Positions 7,401 to 41,652 of a stretch of DNA of 52,543 bases are shown here, in pieces. The notes under the pieces were generated by a model, which did no database searches, had not been told where the DNA came from, and saw only the letters and a program-made list of their open reading frames with translations. A program made the position numbers and the translations under genes. This DNA comes from Hydrolagus affinis (Eukaryota). The stretch's first letter is position 1. Each line of letters opens with the position of its first letter. The DNA lies in NCBI GenBank assembly GCA_012026655.1, contig JAAILG010002620.1:1-52543 (forward strand), read 5' to 3'.

Positions 7401-8603
7401 GGGTGGGTCTCTGTTAAAGCTTAAACAACATTCAAAATCCGTGTGTAATTATAGTATAACTGTGATATATTAAGTCATTGTAAACTGCGAGTTCACTATG
7501 TTTAAGTGTATGTTAACTGTCACAGCATCATCAGGATCCTTACGTCTCCGAAGGCAACAAAGAGGCTTGTTTGGGATGGGAAAATCCAGATAAAGCGTTT
7601 AAATGGTCCCCAAACAACACTGGTCAGTGGAGGTTGTTCAGTAAACTTGGGAGTGCACGGAATCTAGGTTTATTTTACAAATGGAGAGATTAATTTGTGC
7701 TGGTGTTTGAATGTATGTGATGTTGCGTAACATTGCAATCACTGTCTGACACTCAAGCGTCTTCCTTTTTATGTAAGGTGATTGTTACATTTCAATACAG
7801 TCACTTCATTTTCCTCACACACGAATCGAAATCTTTAGCTCTGAAATCCCATGAAAGGTTTCAAGTATTGTTCCACTCAATTCACATTTTAGATGGGGGA
7901 GGTACCAAATTGAACCCCAAATAAAGATTTCCGCTTACTTTCATTGTGACGATAATTATTCTTTCAGTTCATTTGTACCAAAGTAATATTCGGCTTTACA
8001 CTTTCTCGAAAGGTTCAGTGCAATTATAAACAAAAATGTCTATTTTATTTGCATATGTAATACAATCCGTTTAAATTATCTTGTTACATTTTAATCCAAT
8101 ATTACATAGAAATCAAAAGGTAGTGGGAAAATACTCTTATTTTTATTATAAATACATAATAATCATTTCTGGTCATACAATACGTTTCAATTTAGACCAA
8201 ATTATAAACAACATCAATATTTATATTTAACATTGTACAGAACATTGTACAGAATTCTTATTAAATCGTATATAAAATGGATAATATTCTATGATTACTT
8301 TGTTCCTTCTTTGCTGGTTAATTCCACCGTGATGGGTATCACGTTTTGATGTGCTATGTTCTGAGTAGCACAATAACAAGTGTTGCAAGCATTCTCTCGC
8401 GTTCTTGTCCTGGGTAAGTACATGATATCACATCTATTTTCAAATCAACTGTAATCATTCATTGGATTAACGCAGTGAAATATTAGTATAGAGCCTGTGT
8501 CCGTATCAATCAAAATGCAAAAATAAAAAGACTGCCTCCAACATCAGAAAAAATCTACAGTTAAATATACAAATATGGTCAAATGATTACGACGTGATTT
8601 TAA

Positions 8604-8824
8604 TATGTATGAATGCATGCGATGTAATACATACATATATGTATGCATGCATGCATGTATGTATGTATGCACGCACGCATGCATGTACGTATATGTATCT
8701 AAGTATATGTATGTATGTATTTTTGATTGTATGCATTTATGCATGTATGTATGCATGGTTGTGTGTAAGTGTTTGAGTTTGCATGTATCTTCCTCTATAT
8801 TTGTATACATACTTATGTTTGTAT
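8604..8824. repeat. Degenerate (TATG/TGCA)n tetranucleotide microsatellite
   Basis: tatgtatgcatgcatgcatgtatgtatgtatgcacgcacgcatgc...; explains the low-complexity ORFs on both strands here. Confidence 0.9.
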
Positions 8825-11449
8825 TCCTAATTTAAATTTCCACCTGGTCATACTTGCCTAAATTTCGAATTCTTAAAAAAATGATAACTATGATCTATAG
8901 CTCCAACTAATTTCGTCGTATTAATTTTAACTTTATCGTGGCATGTGGTTTCAGTCTTGATCCGCAAACATATAGAAACCTGCTGGTATATTCACAACAA
9001 CACAACGTTACACAGCTACAGACTTTACATGAGCAAGCTGGCAATTGAAATGACAACCGCAGCAATTTAACCATACATATATTTGTCTTTAATTAGCTTC
9101 AGGGCGATACACACACCAATGCGGTCGCAGTTTGTATTAATGAAGAAAAGTGGTTTGAGATTGTTTGCAGACCTGAGCGTATTTTTGAACGTTTTCTTAA
9201 CGGTGAAGGTTGTTGTAATGTGAAACAGTCCTGATTAAAATCGTGTACAAAATACCATATCGATGCTATATTTGTGGGGGGGGGAAACAAAGGCTGCTTA
9301 AAGCACACGAGTGGGACAGTGCAATAACAATACTCTCCTTACAAAGTGCCAAGAAGCTGACCGGTCTGCCAAGCTTTGGGTTTAAGGTCGGAGTAAATTG
9401 CAAAACAGAAGAGAAAAAATTCAGCTGTTTTTTCAAACCATCTGTTTTATATTATTGTGGGAATCTGCGCGTTTGTCCACCCTGGTAGTGAACGTTTCCT
9501 TAAGTTTACATCATTCTTTTGTTGAAAACGTGGCCATACAGTGCAACCAAATAAATCCACATCTATATTTCCCATGTGCTTCCTGATAAGGCATCTGATT
9601 TTATTCTCGCTGGGTGGATTTGTAGATATTCGAGTGTTTGCTTTGCTTGTACTTTCCATCGTTTCTTCGCTGTTTATCACAGAAAATATGATGTGTATCT
9701 GGCAACTTACTTTTCAGTGAGGTATTCTCAGACCTGAACACAAATGAAAACGTTTAAATTGCGCGAATTTCTCACCATCGACAGTAGAAATATCCATGAT
9801 GTTGTTGAGTGAAACTACTGAAATTTGGGAAAGAATTTTTTTTAAAAACAAAACAAAATTCGCACATCTCTCTCAATTTGGTAAACCACTTCAAAACTAC
9901 TGGGTCTTTTCAAGGAATATATTTCGGGGGGGAAAGTTCATTCGCTTCCCGGAACACTCCAATTACTATTCTGCTTAATCTAAGATGGAGATAACAGATA
10001 AATGTTCTGGGTTGAATGTTGTTTTGTCAAACGAAGATTGCTTCAAACGAGCGAGAGACGAATGTAGTTAGTACACTAACCCGCTAAAACATCCCCACAG
10101 TGAGGCAGACCCTGTCTGCTCAGCACAAAGGTTGCTTCTCGTTATAAGTGTCTCCAGAGATCAAACGAGAAAAATAATTTACAATATTAGAGGAAATGCT
10201 TTGGAATGGTTTGCGTGAGGATCCGAGCCGAAATCAGCGTTTTCTGATAATTATTTATGCCTATCCTTCAATACGCCAAACACATTGTTATGGAATGGTT
10301 ACTTTACACGGAGTTTCTATTGAGGCGAATACAAGGAATTCAGAATTCAGTCTTGTCCACTAAAATATAGTGGAATGTGGAGTGAACGCACACATGAATC
10401 ATTGGCATTGCGGGAAACCCTGCATTAAAGCGCAGAAAGCAGTCAGGAGAAAGCAGAATTTACAATAAAGTGTGTAAAACGGCTTCGGAAACAAGTTCTG
10501 TGATTTAATGAGAGGATTGAAAAAAAAGTTGTAAAACAGAAGGAGGAAATGATGCAGGGGCAATTCCCCTGCGGGGATTTGGTCAGATTACCTAGCAACT
10601 CGAAAAGATTTTCACAGAATAGTTGTTGCACTGGTAACAGCAGAAGGAAACATGGTCTCTTATCTGATATTATGCACTTTAGAGAATCAATATGCCACAC
10701 GTTTGGAAATCTTTAAAAACCCTCGACTGAAGAGCTAATAAGGAGGTACTGGCTTCACGGTGAAGGTCCCTGAGTGGTGCTGCAGTCTATATCCTTCTGC
10801 GTTTATAGCTCCGCTAAAACCCTGCAGTATCCTGTTCTATAATCCAGAGATTAGATCCCACTGATAATTAATCGACGGTGTTAACAGTTTCTGCGTTACT
10901 TAACCAACTCAAGTTTCTGTAGGGGATTGCAGCTCGTCGCAGGCGGAGAAAACAAGGCATCCGTCAGAAGAGCCGAAAAGCAGCGGAAATCTTGTGATAT
11001 ATAAAAAAAAGAGAGAACGCTTTTAACATTATGTATCAAAGCAAGTGCAAACACGGTTTGTAACCCTGAGGAATTAAGAGTGAGTGATTTATGCTTACGT
11101 TTCTTCAACGGGTTTAGTTTCTCGAGGGAGTGAACCCAGTGCCCACAGGTCCCCTCGTTGTTCACGATCGGGGCTAAACATTTTATTCAAATAAATTTAG
11201 AAATTTATTGTTGATCTGATTTTTCAAACCATACCTGTGATTCCCAAGCCTACACAGATGTGAGGGGAGGGTGGAAACCGGAATCACTCCCAAAGCTTCT
11301 GTTCTGCACATAATTATTCCTCTTTTTTTTAAAAAAGGGAAAGTCTGACCAGCACCTGTGTTGTTGTGACGCCAGACACGATGTTTGTATTTTGCTGCTT
11401 TTATTTTGAAAATCATCAGATAAGGTGATACTTGCCACTGGTGCCTCGG

Positions 11450-24919: not shown

Positions 24920-25520
24920 ATGAGCTCTTACTTTGTAAACTCATTCTGCGGTCGCTATCCAAATGGCCCGGACTATCAGTTACATAATTATGGAGATCAT
25001 AGCCCGGTGAACGAGCAATACAGGGATTCTGCAACGATGCATTCCAGCAGGTACGGCTACGGCTACAATGGGATGGATCTCAGCATTAGTCGTTCAGCAT
25101 CTAACCATTTTAATGCCAATGAAAGATCTCGAAGCTACTCTGCAGCAGCAGCAGCAGCAACGACAGCAGCAGCAACAGCAGCAGCAGGGACAGGAGCAGC
25201 AGATACCAGGTACAGCCAACCTGCCACATCCACTCAGTCTCCTTCACCTGACCCTCTGCCCTGCTCCGCAGTGGTCACTCCGCCTGCCAGCGACAACAAC
25301 CACGGAATCAAAAACTCCATCACAAGCCCAACTACCTCCTCAAATTCCAGCAGCAGCAGCAGCAGCAGTCACATCAGCAGAGATGGGGTTGGCACGTCGC
25401 CTGGTACTGAGGATGACACCCCGGCAAGCAGCGACCCGCCAAGTTCACAGAACGGGCAAAACACAGCACAACAGCAGCCCCAGATTTACCCCTGGATGCG
25501 AAAACTGCACATAAGTCATG
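24920..25520 (+). CDS. HoxA5: Homeobox protein Hox-A5, coding exon 1
   Basis: [28 protein letters not shown]...[12 protein letters not shown]...PDPLPCSAV...[15 protein letters not shown]; donor G|GTAAAA 25520/25521. Confidence 0.97.
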
Positions 25521-25946
25521 GTAAAATCCCTCCTCTCTTTTATCTTTACATTAGTGGGATCCTAAATTATCACGGATGTTATAAATCAGGCGCTAAATGT
25601 GTAACCCCTAATGCTCCTTAATATCTCTGCAAGGGTCATGTTTTTAAGTTGCTATTGTATTTGAAGTCGTTGGGTGATGGAATATTAATTAATACGTTGG
25701 CTAGTTGAGCATCTGTAGTGTGAGGTTAAATAGGAACCGATTTTTTTTTTTAAAAACGTGTAATTGATTGAAAAAAAACACCTTTGACCAAGTGAACACT
25801 CAACATTTAGTTCCAGTTAAGTTTCTAAGACAGTTATTTTTAGATACAAGGGAGAGCGCAAAGCCAGCCGAGACATGTGAGTGATAGATTTCGGTCTGGT
25901 GCTTTCAGTTGGGCTTTATGAATTTTTACACCACATAATTTACTGA

Positions 25947-26243
<297 letters not shown>

Positions 26244-27865: not shown

Positions 27866-30800
27866 CCAACAGTATATTCTACATAACATATAATCTCGTT
27901 GACGCTGGACTGCATTTGGCTCCTTTGCAGATTGCATGTGCACACAGGCCACTCAAATGGCTAATCTTCATGACCAGAGGACTATCCACACCAACTCCAG
28001 TGTACCAGAAAGTTATGTATTCTTGCCTCTGGAGGTAAGTTTTGTTGAAATATTATTGTTATTTACCATTGATGGGGGAAACTCGGCCCAGTAAATGGCT
28101 CCTCAGCACCACCCAGAGTGCATTGAGGCAGAAATGGGCCAGGGTGAATCAGTTGTGGCTTTCTTTGGGGGTTCACATGATCTCACTTGTTAAACAAGCC
28201 GAAAACAGAGAGAATGATTCTCATACGTGGAATAACTTAGAAAAGTTGAAACGATGGAGTTTCATTTGAAGTGAGGTGTATCTCAGAAGTTATTTTACCC
28301 TCTGGAGGATTTTCATTGAATTGACTGTTAATGACATCATTTTCATAAGGTTTGGCAGAAAATTTCTATTTGTTTCTCTCAAAGTATTAGTTTCTCAAAA
28401 GTTGTTTCAGTTTTATTTGTGCATTCATGTCTCGTAGAGGGGGTAATGCCTCTGTGCTAGCAGGAATTTATTCGTTTGAACAGTGTGTAGTTGTTACTGT
28501 TTCAAGTACAATAGAACATTAAGTTTTTATTGTCATGCTTAGAGAAGCTGCAGGGCATAAGTACTTTTTATGACTGTTGTAAGAGTGTTGAAAGCTTCCT
28601 CGTGTTGTTCTCAAAACTGCAGCTTGCTTTTTGATGACTCAAGTACACAGTATCCTTATTATATATGCCATCATTACCATTTCCTTTTAAGAAATCTCAT
28701 TATTTTATATGTAACTCTGGTGTCAACAGTTCTAACCATGTTCCATATGTTTTTTTTGGTGAAAGACAATTAAGTAAATGCAACAAAACTTAATTCAAAC
28801 AACTTCGAATGACAGCAATGTCTGCAATAGAGGTGCTGTACGGCTCTTTTTCCTGAAAACAACATGCATTTAAAACACAGCCAGCGGAAGAGTTACTTCA
28901 GCTTTAAATCTGAGTGTAGTAACACCAACATTGTTTTAGCTCAATTGCTGGGTTCCCACAGTTCTGACTGACCAACCATAAACTTTATGACCGGCGTTTC
29001 TTTTCTTTGAAGCTTCCGCTAGCCTAATATCCAGATCTACAAGAAGAGTGTTTGAAGTTACATTGTCTCTAACGAGTCCTTCAATGCGGAAGGTGGACAT
29101 TAGCCCCCAATTGGTGTGAGATTTTACATTGGCAAACCCAATCGTTAATATAGGAAATGGAGAGAGCAGGCGGCCACGTCGTTAAAGGGGGACAGCACGG
29201 TTGAAAGCAATTAGCCCATCCAGAATTTCTACTCAAAACATTCCACTGTAATTAGGTCAGTTTTACGATGTGCTATAAAGATCCAACCACAAATAAAGGA
29301 AATAGGGCCTGTATTGCTGCAGTGGTTCCGGATCGCCCAAGTCAATCGTGTCAATCAGTTGTAATTTCCTTTGTATTAGTTTACATTTAGATATGACGGT
29401 TTTAATATATCACTTGTCCACTTCACTTAAATAACTTTTACAACAAGACGAAACAGACTTTAGTTTCACTCAGATTAAGTGAATGCTATTCAACGCAACG
29501 TTATGTATCATTCACAAGATTTAAGTTGACTTTTAGCGGCAATTGCTTTCCCTAAACATCAATGATATTGTGATACGTTATTCAGTTTCAAATTGCATAA
29601 AGTTTGGGCTTAAAGTACCACTATTGGGCATGTTTATATTTCGTGGAGGTCTCCAACCTTTTCAATTTGAAGCTACGAGACTCTAAGGAGAAGTATCTTG
29701 GCAAAATTAAAGATTAAAATATGTAAATATTTACCTCATCCTCATTCGTATATATTATACACATAGATATTCTGCGGTGAATAACAATGGGCTAAAAGGC
29801 ATGAAAATGCTGCAAATACTGAATCCCTCTTTCTGTATTTTTCTTGATGAGGCCAAATGCATATTGCCTCAAATAAGGGGTCATCAGTTGTCATAGCTGC
29901 ACTTGCTGAACAAACTGCAGGGACAATGCGAGGGTTTTAATAAAATAATCAACGCGCATTATTTACTTATATGATTCACAGTGTCTTCTGAAAATAAATG
30001 TGTAGACATGATTCACGACACATTTTACTATGGCTGGTGCTATTAGTGGTACTTTTTAGACGGACTGACGTAATTATATACGAGGAAGTAAAGTACATTT
30101 TGAAAATTTCATCCGAAAGTTGTGTAGGAAAAGATAGAAATATACTTTAGCCGCTATCTCTTCCATGGCCCCAAAATGCATTTTCATTGGAATGTTTCAT
30201 TTCACACCCCAATATCTACAGTATAAGCCAAAGAGCTAGTTCAAAAATATAGTCACATTTATAAATTTACCTTCCACCTAAGCTAACACATCTGTAAAGT
30301 TTTGGGTAAACCATTTGATGTAGGCTATGAAATGTATCAAAAATTGTCCCTTTACACACCACCTCATAAATCAATGAGTAGATACACAGCAATACAGTAC
30401 TATTTACCGTTTTGCTGTGTTCCTGTGTGGAATAGGTTGGGGATTACAGTTGATTAAAAGAATAACATAATTTTGAAAAACATGATTAGTAAATTTAAGG
30501 GGTTTGGTACAGGATTGGTGGGTGTAAAATGTGGAATGTGATTTGTTTATGTTTCGCCAGAGTAAAGGGCAACGAGAGGACAACACGATTTTCAATAACA
30601 ACAAACTATACTAGTTTATCTTTTGGACACAGCAGACATCTTTTGCGACGTTTCTAACTGTGTCTTTCCCCTAAGTCCAAGGCAAAACGTCCAAACTCAT
30701 TGTTTTGTGTAACTCAGTCTATGTAAACTTATGCAGCATAGTATGTGAAAATGTAATCACTCTTCTCGATGTCTTTTCAGCAATCTCGAGAGTTCTGCAA

Positions 30801-32081
30801 CATTGTGATTTCCTGTTTATGGACAAAGTAACAGCTAATTGATTTGACGTTCATTAGAGAGAGTAAAATAAATGAAAGAGGAAGCACCCAATGCGGATTC
30901 CTTTGTAAACGTACACAAAACAAAACAAAACGGAAATTACTTTTAACGGAAGAGGAAAATTCATAGAAATTCACATTCAATAATATTTTGGAGCACATAA
31001 ATAGAATTAAAGTATTGTGTGACATAATAATCAAGCCTTTGCATGGTTTTAAAATTACATTGACTTTATCTCAATATCTGTAGCCTGCCTGGTGTGAAGT
31101 TTCATTTGAAATGCTTTGCATTCCAAAGATAGTCATGAAATATTTTATTGAGTATTATAATCGAAAATTAATTTAGGAAAAGTTTACAGGGGATAGGAAG
31201 TTCTATAATCACCACATGTTATTTTTTTTCATTTGATTTCAACTGTTCTATTCGCCAGTTACAAGTTTGATATTAATTGTTATTCAAAGGGCAGATTAAA
31301 TGGATAGAAAGGAAATCAAACGGATGTCTGAATAGGCCGATAGGAATTCCTCACCAATACGTTTGTGGTACAAATTGACCTCTTCTTGAAATAAGGGGTT
31401 GTTATTCTTCAAGAAAGGGGTGGAATAAACGTTGTGAACACAATATATCCTGGATCACATGTAAAATATCGCTGTGCCATTGCATCATTCTATCGTTGAA
31501 TTGGGTAGAGAAAAAAAAATAAAACCCACTACAAAAACCTATTGGCTTGTATTTTATTTTGCCAACACAATCGGTACATTAAATAAGGAAGTAAAAGTTG
31601 TGCAGTCGTAATCATATAACTTTTCTGAATAACGTATTATCACGTAAAATAGCGATATGATTTACGTTCACAATTTTGTATGCCAACACTGGAGCTTTTG
31701 ACGAAGGAAACTAATGCAATGAAGGTATCGTTTCGCGAAAAGGTCATATCTAATCAATGGAAAAAAATGATTTAAACCTAATTTATTATTTTCTGGGTTC
31801 TCAACTTGATAGTTTGTTATCGTTTGATTCAAAATCCTGAATGTACTGCCTGTGCTGCCATTACTGTTGTTAGTGGGATATCATAAATAATCTTGAGTGT
31901 GTAAGAAACGATTTCAAAGGTAGATCCCCAGATTCCCATTTTGCCTTATACCTGATAACTAGCAATGTGGATCATTTCATGGTGCTAGGATTTCTCGTTG
32001 CTTAAACCTGTTAAAGCATGTACTCGAGAGACAGAGAGAGAAAGGATTATCGGAAGATGTATCTGCACACCCTACAAGTCA

Positions 32082-32095: not shown

Positions 32096-32692
32096 TTTAG
32101 ACCAAGTTCACAGTCACATTGCATTAGTATGAACGTGGGAGCTCACACGTCTATTGTTCTATCAATACAGCGGAGAAGGAGAAAAGGACGTAAATATTAA
32201 AATAGTCTCATAACGTTAACGACTTTTTGTCAGGGTTATCTATAATTGCCTGTGGCAACTGCCGCAAAAAAACTTACCCATTTTGTATATCCAACTAAAT
32301 AGTAGAGCACTTGAATAAATAGCTTGCAGACAGCTGACGTTTCATGCCACGTTTGAGATTAATTTAAGGAAAAAGAAAAGGTTTCACTCATTTCAAAAAA
32401 AGTAACGATTCTCTCACTATTTCCAAACCTGAAATTAGTAGTACATCGTGAAAATAGTGAACGAAAGGGGAATATAATTTCAGTCCTCGGTGGCGCTTTG
32501 AGAGTGCTGTATCTCTGTATCCTGGTTGGCAGGGCGGTGCAACTGTAGGTCAAAAAGTTGAGGGTCAAAAGTTTACGTTTTGCACGACTTGTAATGATCT
32601 GCTCAGACAGAGTTTGATGTCAATGTTATAGCGCGATCTTGACTATCAGCACAAAAGATAAAATAGCTTTGAGTTACTCGTGTATCATACTA

Positions 32693-32709
32693 TGGACTCC
32701 AGGTGAACC
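32693..32709 (-). promoter_or_regulatory. Candidate DR5 retinoic acid response element
   Basis: Minus strand GGTTCA-cctgg-AGTCCA, one mismatch in the second half-site. Confidence 0.45.
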
Positions 32710-34992
32710 CTGGCGACTGAGCGACCTCAATTACTGACGAAAGGAAAGAAAAAATATTCTTTTCATGACCAAGACACGCTGTATTTCATCTTGAAAAATT
32801 GACCACGGTAATTTTAATGTCTGTTGTGTACGTGCAGCAGGTAAACCTTTAGCAACTGTACACAATTTAAGTGACTTGTAAACATATATTTGAATTGTTT
32901 TATTCAGTTTAGCTTTTTATCGTGTGCATTCTCGCTTGTTTTTAAACGGGTGAGATGGCGCAGCAGCGAAGCTGTTGAATTGCTCACACCATGGAAGCAA
33001 TCTCTGACTCCGGGCTAAGACCGGCATCAATTAGGTTAAAATTCACGTAGAGTTCCCCAGATAATAGACTTAGTTCAAAACTGTAGTGCATGTGATGTTT
33101 GTATTGTCTGAACATTTCAAAATCACGCTATTTTCAGTGATTCAATGAAAACCTAGTTTTAAGTACTTTTGATTATGAATGGCCTAACTTGTATTTCAAT
33201 CGATTTTAATGCGCTCGAGCATAGTGTGACACTCGATTGAGTGTTAAACTGTGAGGCCAAAAGTTCTTTCTTCAACAAAAATCCAGGAATGCGATTTATT
33301 TATAAGTGTTCAAAACTGACAACATTTGTTCATTTTTAAAACGTTGGGATCTGCCTTGATTTTTTTTACCACATATGTGTGATTCAATAATAATTGTAAG
33401 ACTCTTGTCAATGGAGTGAACATGATCAGAACAATTTAAAATGAAAATAAAGTGGTGCAATTAAATACCAGCTATTCCATTCAATCAATTAATATAAAAG
33501 GTCGAAGCAAGCAATGTGGTTTTGTGTGAAACTGCTTTCTAAACGTAATGCGGTAATTCCTGTTCACCATATGAATTTTAAAGAAACGTATTGACAATCT
33601 AACATAGGACTTAACTCCAATTAACCGATTGATTTAATTTTTATTTAAATTTAGTTGATTACAATCTGTTTGTTGGATAAAAAAAAAAGCAAAATTTATG
33701 TTACTCGTTTTTGCAAAATCGTGGAACTAGACAACTGAATTTATACCTTAATCCTCAGACTCGATTTTTTTTAATGAATAATGTTCCAAAATATTTCGTA
33801 AGCTTATGTTGAGTTGTTCTGCCTTACTCTGTAGCTTTTGAATCGAAGAATGTTTGTAGCTCAGAAAAACATATCAAACAAATCAAGCAAAGATCGCCTC
33901 ACATAAACAGAGTACAAAAAATGTAGAATTAAATAAACTGTATTGTTCTTAGGTTAGTTCAAAAAGATTCAACGACTTGGATTTTGCAGGTTAATACAAA
34001 GGCAAAATATATAATGTAACCAGCAGCAGTAATCATTTCTGAAGTCCCTTTTTATTTGGATTTGACGTGAAGGGATTTTGCAAAGACCAATTGAATTCTA
34101 AATGGAACTTCCAATTGAACTCCTATGGATCCATCTGTATGTTCGTGGTGTAGATAAATTATTGAATATAGATAGAAAGGATGCTCATTCTCACAGGATT
34201 TCCTTTTCACTGCGTTAAAGTAAGAGCAAAGAGAAAGCTTCAGCCACGTCTATCACATACAAACTCAACATTTCTCTCCTGTAATAAGAGGGGGTTAAAC
34301 ATGTCAGTATTCAACGAATAAATTCGTTTATCTGAGTTAACACTTGTTACTAGTTTTGTAACTTGTCCATGATTGTGTCATTATGGTTGTTAATCGGTTC
34401 ATCATAGTTCCCAGTTTAATGCTATTCTAGAAGCAAAGGTTTGTTGACACTCATTTAAAATTGGCAACTGCCCATTTCAAAGAAGAAACTTGCCCTAAAA
34501 AGTGATGATATTAACCTCAAACTTCTTTTATAACGCGATTTTGAATGACTTAACCCAGCCTGAAATGTTTGAACCCTGCAGCACACGTATAAAGACAGAA
34601 GCGAGAATTTGAAATGCAATGCAGATGTATTGCTAAAACAAAGCAGGCCTTTGTGTAAGTTTCTTGCAAGTTAAATTAATTTCAAATTCAGAAACCACAT
34701 TGTCCAACCACTGACATGGTTTTATTTAGTGTTTCCTCTACTTTGATTACTATCAATGATTTACCAAAGCAAAAATATCAAATTATTGCTTTTTTGAACT
34801 CCAAAATTGAGAACATTTTATTTAAAATATTTAAAGACGATTACCAAATAGGCTATTGAAATACTCAAGACTGCATTGAACCCATGCGATTTGCCTTGTT
34901 TCCCCCCTCCTCAAAGGTAATGACCTGGGCAAAACACCCTGGTATCTGAAAGAGCACTATAGACCTTTTAGAAATGGCTAAGTCCAAGGCCG

Positions 34993-35009
34993 AGGTGAAA
35001 TTCAGGTCA
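34993..35009 (+). promoter_or_regulatory. HoxA4 5' DR5 retinoic acid response element
   Basis: AGGTGA-aattc-AGGTCA, 2.9 kb upstream of the HoxA4 ATG; same half-sites and similar distance as the known Hoxa4/Hoxd4 5' RARE; TGTCA (Meis-type) motifs follow. Confidence 0.85.
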
Positions 35010-36357
35010 CCGCGTCTAACAAATATGAAAATGTCGCCTCACGAATGGCACGCCTTGTTACTTAACAAAGACTGTCAATGTATAAGATTAATAAGAAACA
35101 AAATGCACACGGTGTCACTTTTCGGTCACTTCCAAACTTAGCTTAGCGTATCCTTTGCGAAATCTAATTCATTGAATAAAAATGTTTTGTTTCGTTTCTC
35201 GTGTTGGAGCTCAATAAACGCGCAGTTGTGCAGCGCTGTGGGATGTGGAAGTCTGCTCGAAGATGTATCTTCGAAATATACCGTTTTACTTGTTTTATTT
35301 GGATGCTGAGGCGGACATTGGCTATTTTAACCATATGTCCCAGATAGAACTGGAGAACAATTACATTACCACCATGGCGCAACCTATGTGATAAACCCAG
35401 GGCAGTGCTGGCGGATTCAGACGCTAAATGAGGAATTTATGACACAATCAACCAAACTACTGTTTCCTGTTTGGAGGGGAAATTAAACTGGTAAAGTCTA
35501 ATCTCTGATTTATCAAACCACGAAACGATCTTCACTTAAGCAGTAAACGGATTCCTCGACACTTTCTAAATGTAAATTTGATATGAACGCTTTTAAAATA
35601 TACACCTTTCAAAATATTGTGTAAAAAAATGCTAACTTTGGCTTTATCTCGAAAATGGCTGTAAATCTAACCTTGCAGTAAAAATGTCAAATGTGCAGGC
35701 AGGCGAGATAACACTTGGGGGTCTTGGCTTCATCTCTGTTTATGAAGAGGAAACAAAATCTGCAAAGGCGACTGACCCGCGTTTACTTGTCCTAAGTAAT
35801 TTCTTGCGTGTATATGAGATGCAAACTTATTCCTCATTTTTCCTCCTAGAGCATCAAACACATATTTCTCAAGTTAATCAACGGGCGATATTATTTACCA
35901 GAAGATTACGTTATCAGATCAAAGTAATTTGCGCCACCCATGTTTAGAGAAACTCACGTCTTTTATTGGGTAGAAGTTAATTTTACTGTATTTTTGGAAA
36001 ACGAATAGAATGTTCTATTTACATTATAATACTTATTTTGGGGACATTTAAAAACATGAATTATTTAAAGAGGAAGAATTAAATGTAAACATCTGTACAA
36101 GCTGCTCTACGTAAACAACACAAAATATTAGGCCATCATCCATGGAGATAATCTAAACACATTCCATTTGTATATAAACTAGTGGAAATACATATTTGTT
36201 TCTTGGATTGAAAGTCGATTAATTTCACTAGTACGATATTTTATTGAAAGCGTTTCACTGGACGATTCCGTTGGGTGGCAAACAGGACAGTGGGATAAAT
36301 GCACCTTACAACTCGTGTTTCACAAAATAGTTCAAAGGGCTCGTTCAATTCAAACAT

Positions 36358-36412
36358 CACATTCAATAACCGAATTTGTAAGAAATCTTACAAATATTAA
36401 AATAGGGGCTGG
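36358..36412 (+). pseudogene. Degenerate mir-10 hairpin remnant (seed destroyed)
   Basis: 36358-36380 matches miR-10b-5p at 16/23 ungapped, including AACCGAATTTGT; 36391-36412 matches miR-10a-3p at 12/22 ungapped (CAAAT...TAGGGG at exact spacing); canonical mir-10 position and strand upstream of Hox4. Confidence 0.6.
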
Positions 36413-37749
36413 TAATGAATGTAAGATTGACAGGAACTGGCAGGGTGAACCCGCTATGTTTCAGAAAACAAGGCCCATTAAACATAATTACATTCCCAAA
36501 ATATAGTGGCGTAAAATTATCATTTTCGTAAAATATAACTAATTATTTATTGTTTGAGGTATTTTTAATATAAAATATTAAGTAATCATAACAATATTTA
36601 CTAAATTTGACAAAATATTGAAAATTCCACTTTTTGAGTGTGTGTTTCTATTCCGAGGAAAGAGAATCTTTAAAAGTAAATGAATACTAATAATTGTTAG
36701 TGGTTTATACATATATATCAAGCGACTTATATCTTGCAGTGAAGCAACGAATTATCATAGGTGCGGACCCCATAAAAATGAGAAAGCACTAGAAGCACCT
36801 GAAATATAAATTATTGATTGTGTGTTTTCCATATACACTCGCTCGGCAGGGGGAGGGGGACATGAAATACACCGATTTTGTTCAAAAATTCGAAATAACA
36901 ATTGAATGTCGGTTAAGTGTCTTGGGGAGGACTCCTGTTGAAATTAATCGTTTTGTTGAAGATTTGTTTTGTATTTTATTTATTTGCTTCAAACAAGAAT
37001 TACATTTGCTAGGCAATTATATTAATAGAAGGTTCGTTTGCATCATGTTATATTGTGTCCAATTAGATCAAATACAAGAATTAATCTCGTGAAATTGCAT
37101 TTCCATTACACAATGAAGGTATGCATCGAACGATTTAAGAATATGTTGTGCGTATTTGAGTACATTTAGAAGGGATCTGAAATGAATGTATAACTAAAAT
37201 AAAATATCTTGGCTATGGTCAGAATCCTCCACCATGTTCCTAAGTCAGAAATGTTTCAAACAAATCTACAGTGATATATGCCATGATACCCAGGACCCGA
37301 ATATTTTTTGGAATTTGTAAAATATAGTCATAATTTTAATGAAATTCGTACTATAATATCTGAAGCCCTTCGGAAACATTTTGACAGTACGTTTTACAAC
37401 AGAACCGAGAGCGAGAATGTTTGATTCTCGTATACTGCATTTATTTTTCCTGCAGAAAACACTGAGAAAATTACATGGAAAACTATTTTCAGATAGAAGA
37501 ACAATCCATTCAGACAACAAGCAATCTTTAATTGACGTTATTTATTATGTTTTTCCCCCACCGGCATACATTTGAAAACATTTATATTTTACAATATAGC
37601 GTTTTTCTTATTTCGAATCTTACATTGTGTTAAGTCACTAGTTTTCTTGCATAGCTGGAGGTTTTCCTTCCTATGCAAAAAAAATGTAATTTCAGGGTAA
37701 AATTAGATTTTGAATGATAATATAGATTTTTGGACTAGACTCCCTGCAT

Positions 37750-37916: not shown

Positions 37917-38334
37917 ATGACCATGAGTTCGTTTTTGATAAACTCCAACTACGTTGAGCCAAAATTTCCACCTTGTGAGGAATATTCTCAAAATAACTAC
38001 ATACCAAGCCAGTCTCCAGAATACTACGAGCGGCCGCGGGACACTGGATTCCATCATGAGGCAGTATACCCACAATCAAACTACCCAGAGCCGACCTACA
38101 GCTTCAACAATGTCCAAGGCACTGGCAACCGAGACATGTCGCAAAGAGGTCATGTGCAGTCGCAGGCTAGTCTCCAAAATCACACACCGAGACAGAATCA
38201 GCTTTGTGAAGTGGTCCCAGTAGCCACACCAGCTTTGTGTAGCCAGAACGCGAAAATCCCCACTATCCAGAAAGGTACTCCCAGCAAAGAGCCTATAGTT
38301 TACCCGTGGATGAAGAAAATTCACGTTACCACCG
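37917..38334 (+). CDS. HoxA4: Homeobox protein Hox-A4, coding exon 1
   Basis: MTMSSFLINSNYVEPKFPPCEEYSQ...KEPIVYPWMKKIHV; donor G|GTAAGT 38334/38335. Confidence 0.96.
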
Positions 38335-38420
38335 GTAAGTAACTAAAAGCTGACTGAAGCAATTCAAAATCACTCGAAATCGGATGTGCGGAACCCTTTT
38401 CTGTAACTAGCCCTTTCATG

Positions 38421-38480
38421 AGATTTACGATCACCTAACTGTTAGGTCGGTAATTACAGCGCCCATAAATTTTATTGCCC
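38421..38480. promoter_or_regulatory. HB-1-type homeodomain-binding element in the HoxA4 intron
   Basis: GATTTACGA...TAATTACAGCGCCCATAAATTTTATTGCC, the cluster conserved in Hox4 introns. Confidence 0.75.
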
Positions 38481-38686
38481 TGGATCTTGCTCCTGGCCAT
38501 GTGTCTTTGATGCTTTTCTAACCTAAAAACCCAGGGCCATTTTATTGCAGTAGATTGTTCTCCGTTGTCAGTACCCATTGAAAGAAAAAGTCTTGTCTTT
38601 TATAACCTTCATTCACGTGCATCTAATCCCATTGTCAGATTCGTGTCTGTATCTGTACTTATGCTTGGTTACTTTTTTTTGTTCAG

Positions 38687-39012
38687 TGAACCCAAATTAC
38701 ACTGGAGGGGAGCCCAAACGGTCTCGAACTGCTTACACCAGACAGCAAGTCTTAGAGCTGGAGAAGGAGTTCCATTTTAACCGTTACCTAACCAGGCGTC
38801 GACGCATTGAGATTGCACATACTCTTTGCCTGTCTGAACGCCAGGTGAAGATCTGGTTTCAGAACAGAAGGATGAAATGGAAGAAAGATCACAAACTACC
38901 TAACACTAAGATGCGTTCTGCTAGCTCATCATCTTCTACCAGCCAGCAATCACAAGTATCCTCTCATGGCCCTCAGCCAGATGGTTCAACACCAAATTCA
39001 TCAAGTCTATAG
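38687..39012 (+). CDS. HoxA4: Homeobox protein Hox-A4, coding exon 2 (homeodomain); spliced product 247 aa
   Basis: Acceptor TTTTGTTCAG| 38686; (V)[28 protein letters not shown]...[36 protein letters not shown]; stop TAG ends 39012. Confidence 0.96.
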
Positions 39013-41635: not shown

Positions 41636-41652
41636 AGTTCACCAAGAGGACA
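41636..41652 (+). promoter_or_regulatory. HoxA4 3' DR5 retinoic acid response element
   Basis: AGTTCA-ccaag-AGGACA; same type as the 3' neural-enhancer RARE of Hox4 genes (RGTTCA-n5-AGGACA). Confidence 0.75.

Follow-up and report, generated by a model that had tools for sequence, protein, structure and literature searches.

A candidate remnant of a HoxA mir-10 copy upstream of HoxA4 in a ray-like Hox cluster

A non-coding stretch of 55 bases upstream of HoxA4 (36358-36412) matches parts of both arms of miR-10 while leaving the seed unmatched, and we put at about even the probability that it is the decayed remnant of a HoxA copy of mir-10 left by the early vertebrate genome doublings. The stretch lies within 52,543 bases of DNA, referred to hereafter as the window. 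The first-pass annotation had described it as the decayed fourth mir-10 paralogue; the position, the strand and a two-arm likeness moderately above that of shuffled DNA spoke for that description, while the lack of a match to the Rfam mir-10 model and, under some models, equal or better scores elsewhere in the window spoke against it. The coordinates of the features discussed below are collected in Table 1.

The window contains open reading frames of Hox9-, 7-, 6-, 5- and 4-group genes, all in the same orientation. In a protein search, the exon 1 product of the Hox4 gene shared 94% identity with Hox-A4 of Hemitrygon/Hypanus, and none of the remaining 119 of the 120 matches listed exceeded 54%. 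The exon sizes agree with those of skate and horn shark Hoxa4 (PMC2746220). Because of this protein identity and these exon sizes, the window is, judging by its sequence, a HoxA cluster of ray-like, likely myliobatiform type. The Hox5-group gene is presumably HoxA5, a name that we take from the cluster order; its exon 1 product (24920-25621) contains an alanine/threonine-rich run and a serine run. Low-complexity open frames resembling simple repeats occupy 8490-8830, between the Hox9 and Hox7 genes.

Table 1. Features of the window: coordinates, strand and remarks
Feature	Coordinates	Strand	Remarks
Hox5-group gene (HoxA5 by position)	24920..26243	+	upstream edge of 11.7-kb gap before HoxA4
Second mir-10-like two-arm match	34044..34108	+	arm gap 21; upstream of DR5 element; 3873 bases from ATG
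DR5-like retinoic acid response element	34993..35009	+	ends 2908 bases before HoxA4 ATG
5p-like arm	36358..36380	+	16/23 to miR-10b; exact 12-mer 36368-36379
Perfect 10-bp inverted repeat, 2-base spacer	36374..36395 (36374-36383/36386-36395)	.	inner half in would-be loop
3p-like arm	36391..36410	+	11/18 specified positions of either 3p consensus, counted by eye
Outer-stem partner	36410..36422	.	pairs with 36359-36371, the part not matching the miR-10 seed
HoxA4	37917..39012	+	exon 1 37917-38334, exon 2 38687-39012; splice sites from sequence

The site begins 1559 bases and ends 1509 bases before the HoxA4 ATG on the sense strand, and so occupies the syntenic position expected of mir-10, just upstream of Hox4. 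These distances and that of the DR5-like element agree with an earlier placement of the site about 1.5 kb upstream of HoxA4 and downstream of the 5' RARE. We take the DR5-like element to be the known Hox4 5' RARE; in HoxB and HoxD, mir-10 sits between this RARE and Hox4. In the mouse, miR-10b is found immediately upstream of a position 1.1 kb ahead of the Hoxd4 coding region (PMC3185001). Four other DR5-like matches, each with one mismatch, were present in the window (31376-31392, 32536-32552, 32693-32709 and 41636-41652), and the total of five, compared to a shuffle mean of 2.95, is not an excess.

Direct reading against the oligonucleotides printed in PMC2148072 confirmed the reported likeness of the 5p-like arm to miR-10b, the matching positions being 2, 3, 6, 9 and 11-22; against miR-10a the same bases scored 15/23 with a longest run of 10. 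Only three of the seven seed positions (mature positions 2-8) match, in line with the description of the seed as destroyed. No other exact 12-mer of the 5p motif occurs on either strand of the 52.5 kb (expected 0.0019 per kb per strand), and a search of the window for a 20-letter mir-10 core with up to three mismatches gave no match. In the 3p-like arm, CAAAT (36391-36395) and TAGGGG (36403-36408) are separated by 7 bases. The same spacing occurs in three of the four medaka mir-10 3p arms, two of these reading CAGAT (PMC8321539), so the two 3p blocks do stand at the right spacing, as had been proposed. TAGGGG is found in none of the six salmon mir-10 rows shown, of 8, in PMC3728263. At the site the arms stand 11 bases apart, versus 18-22 in 10 fish precursors (6 of the 8 from salmon and 4 from medaka, in the same two sources), which bears out the proposal of a shortened loop. 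By eye, the conserved 5' flank of real precursors is matched at about 3-4 of 12 positions; also by eye, dropping about five bases makes 36411-36420 similar to the 3' flank of medaka mir-10b-1.

The Mir-10-P1 paralogues b, c and d are assigned to HoxD (2-alpha), HoxB (1-beta) and HoxC (2-beta), respectively, in PMC8789304, which is based on MirGeneDB 2.1. In all columns of the same text, namely the gnathostome ancestor, elephant shark, coelacanth, human, gar and zebrafish, the 1-alpha slot is empty, as expected if mir-10 is generally absent from HoxA, to which we assigned 1-alpha by elimination. Because the slot is empty, one mir-10 copy is unaccounted for; because it was already empty in the gnathostome ancestor, a HoxA relic must be very old; and because HoxB (1-beta) is the sister of HoxA, such a relic should resemble the HoxB copy. 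The site departs from this last expectation, since position 12 carries the miR-10b/d letter (HoxC/D type), which is a single position and a weak indication. miR-10a and miR-10c are grouped together in PMC8321539, and miR-10c is located at hoxb4a in PMC3185001. Survival of a relic is plausible because chondrichthyan HoxA non-coding DNA changes slowly; that of skate and horn shark is described as strikingly conserved in PMC2746220.

Likeness to mir-10 was scored with a decayed-copy model made of two 20-letter arm motifs and a free gap of 5-35 bases, loops and flanks being unscored. Two 3p consensuses were used, from salmon at first and then a HoxB/D type from medaka; the HoxB/D consensus, which we judged closer to the ancestor, and the 1.2-kb zone were chosen after seeing the site. 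Depending on the 3p consensus and the loop penalty, the site ranked first to fifth on both strands of the window. With the HoxB/D consensus and no loop penalty it ranked first at 20.3 bits, and its score was reached by 3/3000 shuffles of the 1.2-kb zone, 10/3000 of the stretch from the DR5 element to the ATG and 17/1000 of the HoxA5-HoxA4 gap. A 4-bit penalty for the short loop lowered it to rank 2 (13/3000, 25/3000 and 42/1000 in the same three zones, respectively). In the first run, with the salmon consensus, the site ranked 4th to 5th, and shuffles reached it in 48/2000 (DR5 to ATG) and 62/600 (HoxA5-HoxA4) at a keep value of 0.5 and in 44/2000 and 69/600 at 0.7; holding the arm gap to 17-21 placed it 11th to 12th. 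The second salmon run gave 15/3000, 77/3000 and 114/1000 across the three zones, and the 4-bit penalty brought the site to rank 5 with 57/3000, 199/3000 and 274/1000. Column-permuted decoy models run on the real DNA reached the site in 2/3000, 10/3000 and 26/1500 cases (1.2-kb zone, DR5 to ATG and gap) with the HoxB/D consensus and in 22/3000, 70/3000 and 148/1500 with that from salmon. The shuffled controls proposed with the first-pass annotation thus reached the site in 3-57/3000 cases within the 1.2-kb zone and in 17-274/1000 over the whole gap, and other sites were as good.

The averaged likelihood ratio in the 1.2-kb zone was 10-17 with the HoxB/D consensus, 4.5-7.2 when the HoxB letter was set at position 12, and 1.9-3.1 with the salmon consensus; from the DR5 element to the ATG it was 1.0-7.4. 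The modelling is therefore suggestive of a moderate, model-dependent excess over chance, the ratio being roughly 3-10, short of proof. Simulated decayed copies keeping 40%, 55% or 70% of sites had median HoxB/D scores of 9.0, 20.8 and 32.5 bits, respectively, and the score of the site is close to the second of these. The matches are clumped, since under even decay 16/22 matches would include a run of 12 with a probability of only 0.019. As the local CpG o/e is 1.08, we did not weigh an intact CpG inside the 12-mer against decay. A pattern derived from the site found 8 stretches in a metagenome scan, none mir-10-like and 0/8 with an Rfam match, one chance match in a genome scan (a cyanobacterial MAG), none in a viral scan and none in 100 shuffles; its rarity was not used as evidence because it had been tailored to the site. 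Among 86 real 1.2-kb tiles of the window, the tile holding the site came 4th, outranked by the second mir-10-like match on each strand and by a tile located upstream of Hox9. At 1533 (+), upstream of the Hox9 gene, a 5p-like match of 17-18 bits equals the site under some models and is likely due to chance.

The perfect apical stem described earlier is present as the inverted repeat of Table 1, which in the predicted fold forms 9 bp closed by a 4-base loop. It is weak evidence for a relic because the loop of real precursors would fall on its inner 4-5 bp. Between the 5p- and 3p-like arms, 13/21 in-register pairs are available when G-U is included, but the best predicted fold keeps only 9 bp, and stability equal to that of the site is seen in 38.5% of 62-base frames across the gap. 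As had been claimed, the lower stem is lost: the best fold lacks an in-register hairpin and forms a different outer stem (36359-36371/36410-36422), out of the mir-10 register. With this outer stem included, the site becomes an imperfect inverted repeat of greater length that carries an insert on one side. The HoxA5-HoxA4 gap has further short hairpin-like repeats of this inverted kind at 30384-30420 and 34084-34116.

A covariance-model search, also proposed earlier, gave no support to the site. The Rfam mir-10 model (accession RF00104) found no match at the gathering level in the whole window and none at E<=10 on 2401 bases and on 96 bases around the site. Searching the first 2.2 kb of the window against Rfam gave weak unrelated matches only, so that the window has no microRNA to serve as a positive control for these negatives. 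Four sequencing runs were compared, one of which, from a near relative, covered the site; of the other three, X12 covered 36548-36840, and X5 and X16 gave short low-identity pieces elsewhere, which is no evidence either way. Over the parts covered, 19 substitutions and 2 indels were listed between the near relative and the window. One base at 36376, inside the 12-mer, was deleted in the contig of the relative (a single contig at depth 15.8, with the deletion 16 letters from the contig end), a change that fits a relic or chance, not constraint. The site likely makes no working microRNA because the seed is missing, the Rfam mir-10 model finds no match and the contig of the relative lacks a base of the 12-mer.

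The site could also be an AT-rich spacer with a short imperfect inverted repeat, in which a lucky 12-mer and a palindrome mimic both arms, and we regard this reading as a serious one with a probability somewhat below even. One 12-mer together with a palindrome can produce such mimicry because mir-10 is itself self-complementary, and the CAAAT block is not independent of the palindrome. Scores equal to or better than that of the site elsewhere in the window and the absence of an Rfam mir-10 match on 2401 or 96 bases are what chance would give. Parts of the site also recur nearby (36386-36403 versus 35015-35032, 89%; 36372-36400 versus 37311-37339, 72%). Perfect repeats of the size of the palindrome arose 0.18 times per shuffle of the HoxA5-HoxA4 gap (60 shuffles) and are found at 3 distinct places in the window, and the whole foldback was equalled or beaten at 81/11550 centres and by 27/648 GC-matched frames. 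However, the palindrome leaves TAGGGG unexplained, and both the zone and the strand of the match are those expected, and within that zone shuffles and decoys reached it in no more than 57/3000 cases under every variant tried.

Two further readings are much less probable. That the relic is instead the second match, alone or with both sites as pieces of an old local duplication, we consider improbable. This match was the top one of the first run with the salmon consensus, found without prior expectation, and under that consensus it scored 23.7 bits with 0/1000 shuffles and 2/1500 decoys over the whole gap; its arm gap is natural, it has 14/21 in-register pairs compared to 13/21 at 36358 and, by eye, it carries HoxB-type letters at positions 11-12. 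Under the HoxB/D consensus, however, it scored only 13.9 bits and was reached by 517/1000 shuffles and 743/1500 decoys, it lies upstream of the DR5 element and far from the ATG (Table 1), its fold was no better than shuffles (z -0.21 and -0.79), and Rfam mir-10 at E<=10 gave no match on 121 bases around it. The second match scores on both strands. The loop of amniote HoxB-type precursors may resemble the spacer between the arms at both sites. Because it outscores the site under one consensus, look-alikes of this strength do occur nearby, and we would treat it mainly as a warning that the model gives strong-looking matches off position and secondarily as a rival relic. A working element is highly improbable, whether a hairpin RNA with a shifted seed or a relic co-opted as a cis-element in the DNA near HoxA4. 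Clumped matches could reflect blocks that have been kept, and a trimmed 79-base frame folded with z -3.25 (1/200 shuffles); this fold was not counted as evidence for a microRNA because the frame was trimmed after the fold had been seen, and the first 91-base frame gave only z -1.41 (18/200 shuffles as stable). A large internal loop on one side sets the predicted fold apart from a microRNA precursor, and the base missing from the 12-mer in the near relative also counts against a function.

Returning to decay of a HoxA copy, the points counted in its favor were the position and strand, the lone 12-mer, the first rank under the HoxB/D consensus and the ratio of 10-17; those counted against it were the missing Rfam match, the salmon rank of 4th-5th, the HoxC/D-type letter, the clumping and the poor 5' flank. 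Our weighing combines the likelihood ratios with a prior of about 0.3 that a readable relic exists, which is a judgement and not a result. With Mir-10-P1 b, c and d the site shares a place between Hox5 and Hox4 on the sense strand, 1-1.6 kb before the Hox4 start, as well as the 3' half of the mature strand and two 3p blocks at their natural spacing. Unlike them, it has no seed, a short arm gap (11 versus 18-22), a 3p arm whose middle is lost, no in-register hairpin in its best fold, no covariance-model match and a HoxA location. Dead duplicates likewise recognized by position and residual likeness include Mir-10-P1d of Sphenodon, noted as a pseudogene (PMC8789304), the HoxD12 remnant of a caecilian (PMC4470032) and the Hox14 pseudogenes of elephant shark (PMC3707753). 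Those remnants, which are longer or seem to be younger, came to light in cross-species alignments, whereas the site is 55 bases long, would predate the gnathostome split and is known here from one sequence rather than from such an alignment.

A screen for hairpins in skate HoxA yielded four candidates, none of them mir-10, according to PMC2746220. A HoxA mir-10 remnant is reported neither there nor in the available portions of PMC2148072, PMC3707753, PMC4470032, PMC3541083, PMC4166920, PMC8321539, PMC3394115, PMC4510006, PMC4805430, PMC3185001, PMC2080641, PMC8789304 and bioRxiv 2021.09.01.458616. No report was found in the portions of the literature searched, an earlier mention in Tanzer et al. 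2005 or in supplements being possible.

If the site is a relic, the HoxA copy of mir-10 would have fallen silent before the jawed vertebrates split and then drifted, losing 7-11 bases of the loop and most of the seed end, and slow change of chondrichthyan HoxA non-coding DNA would have left the remnant faintly readable. The palindrome and the outer stem would have arisen afterwards through local change, possibly, and speculatively, by template switching on the old hairpin. The split of the jawed vertebrates lies over 400 million years back. We hold it just short of even that cartilaginous fish keep a readable fossil of the fourth mir-10, dead since before that split, that it fills the 1-alpha slot and that it decayed in place. 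The value of such a relic would be historical because no new mechanism comes with it and a function is unlikely. In PMC8789304, mir-10 is listed in three of the four gnathostome Hox clusters, HoxA being the exception; if the reading is true, HoxA lost its copy through decay in place and not by deletion. The site would then be a dated neutral marker inside a Hox cluster, with a second relic that may sit 2.3 kb upstream, and an unusually old non-coding pseudogene showing how the fourth copy was lost.
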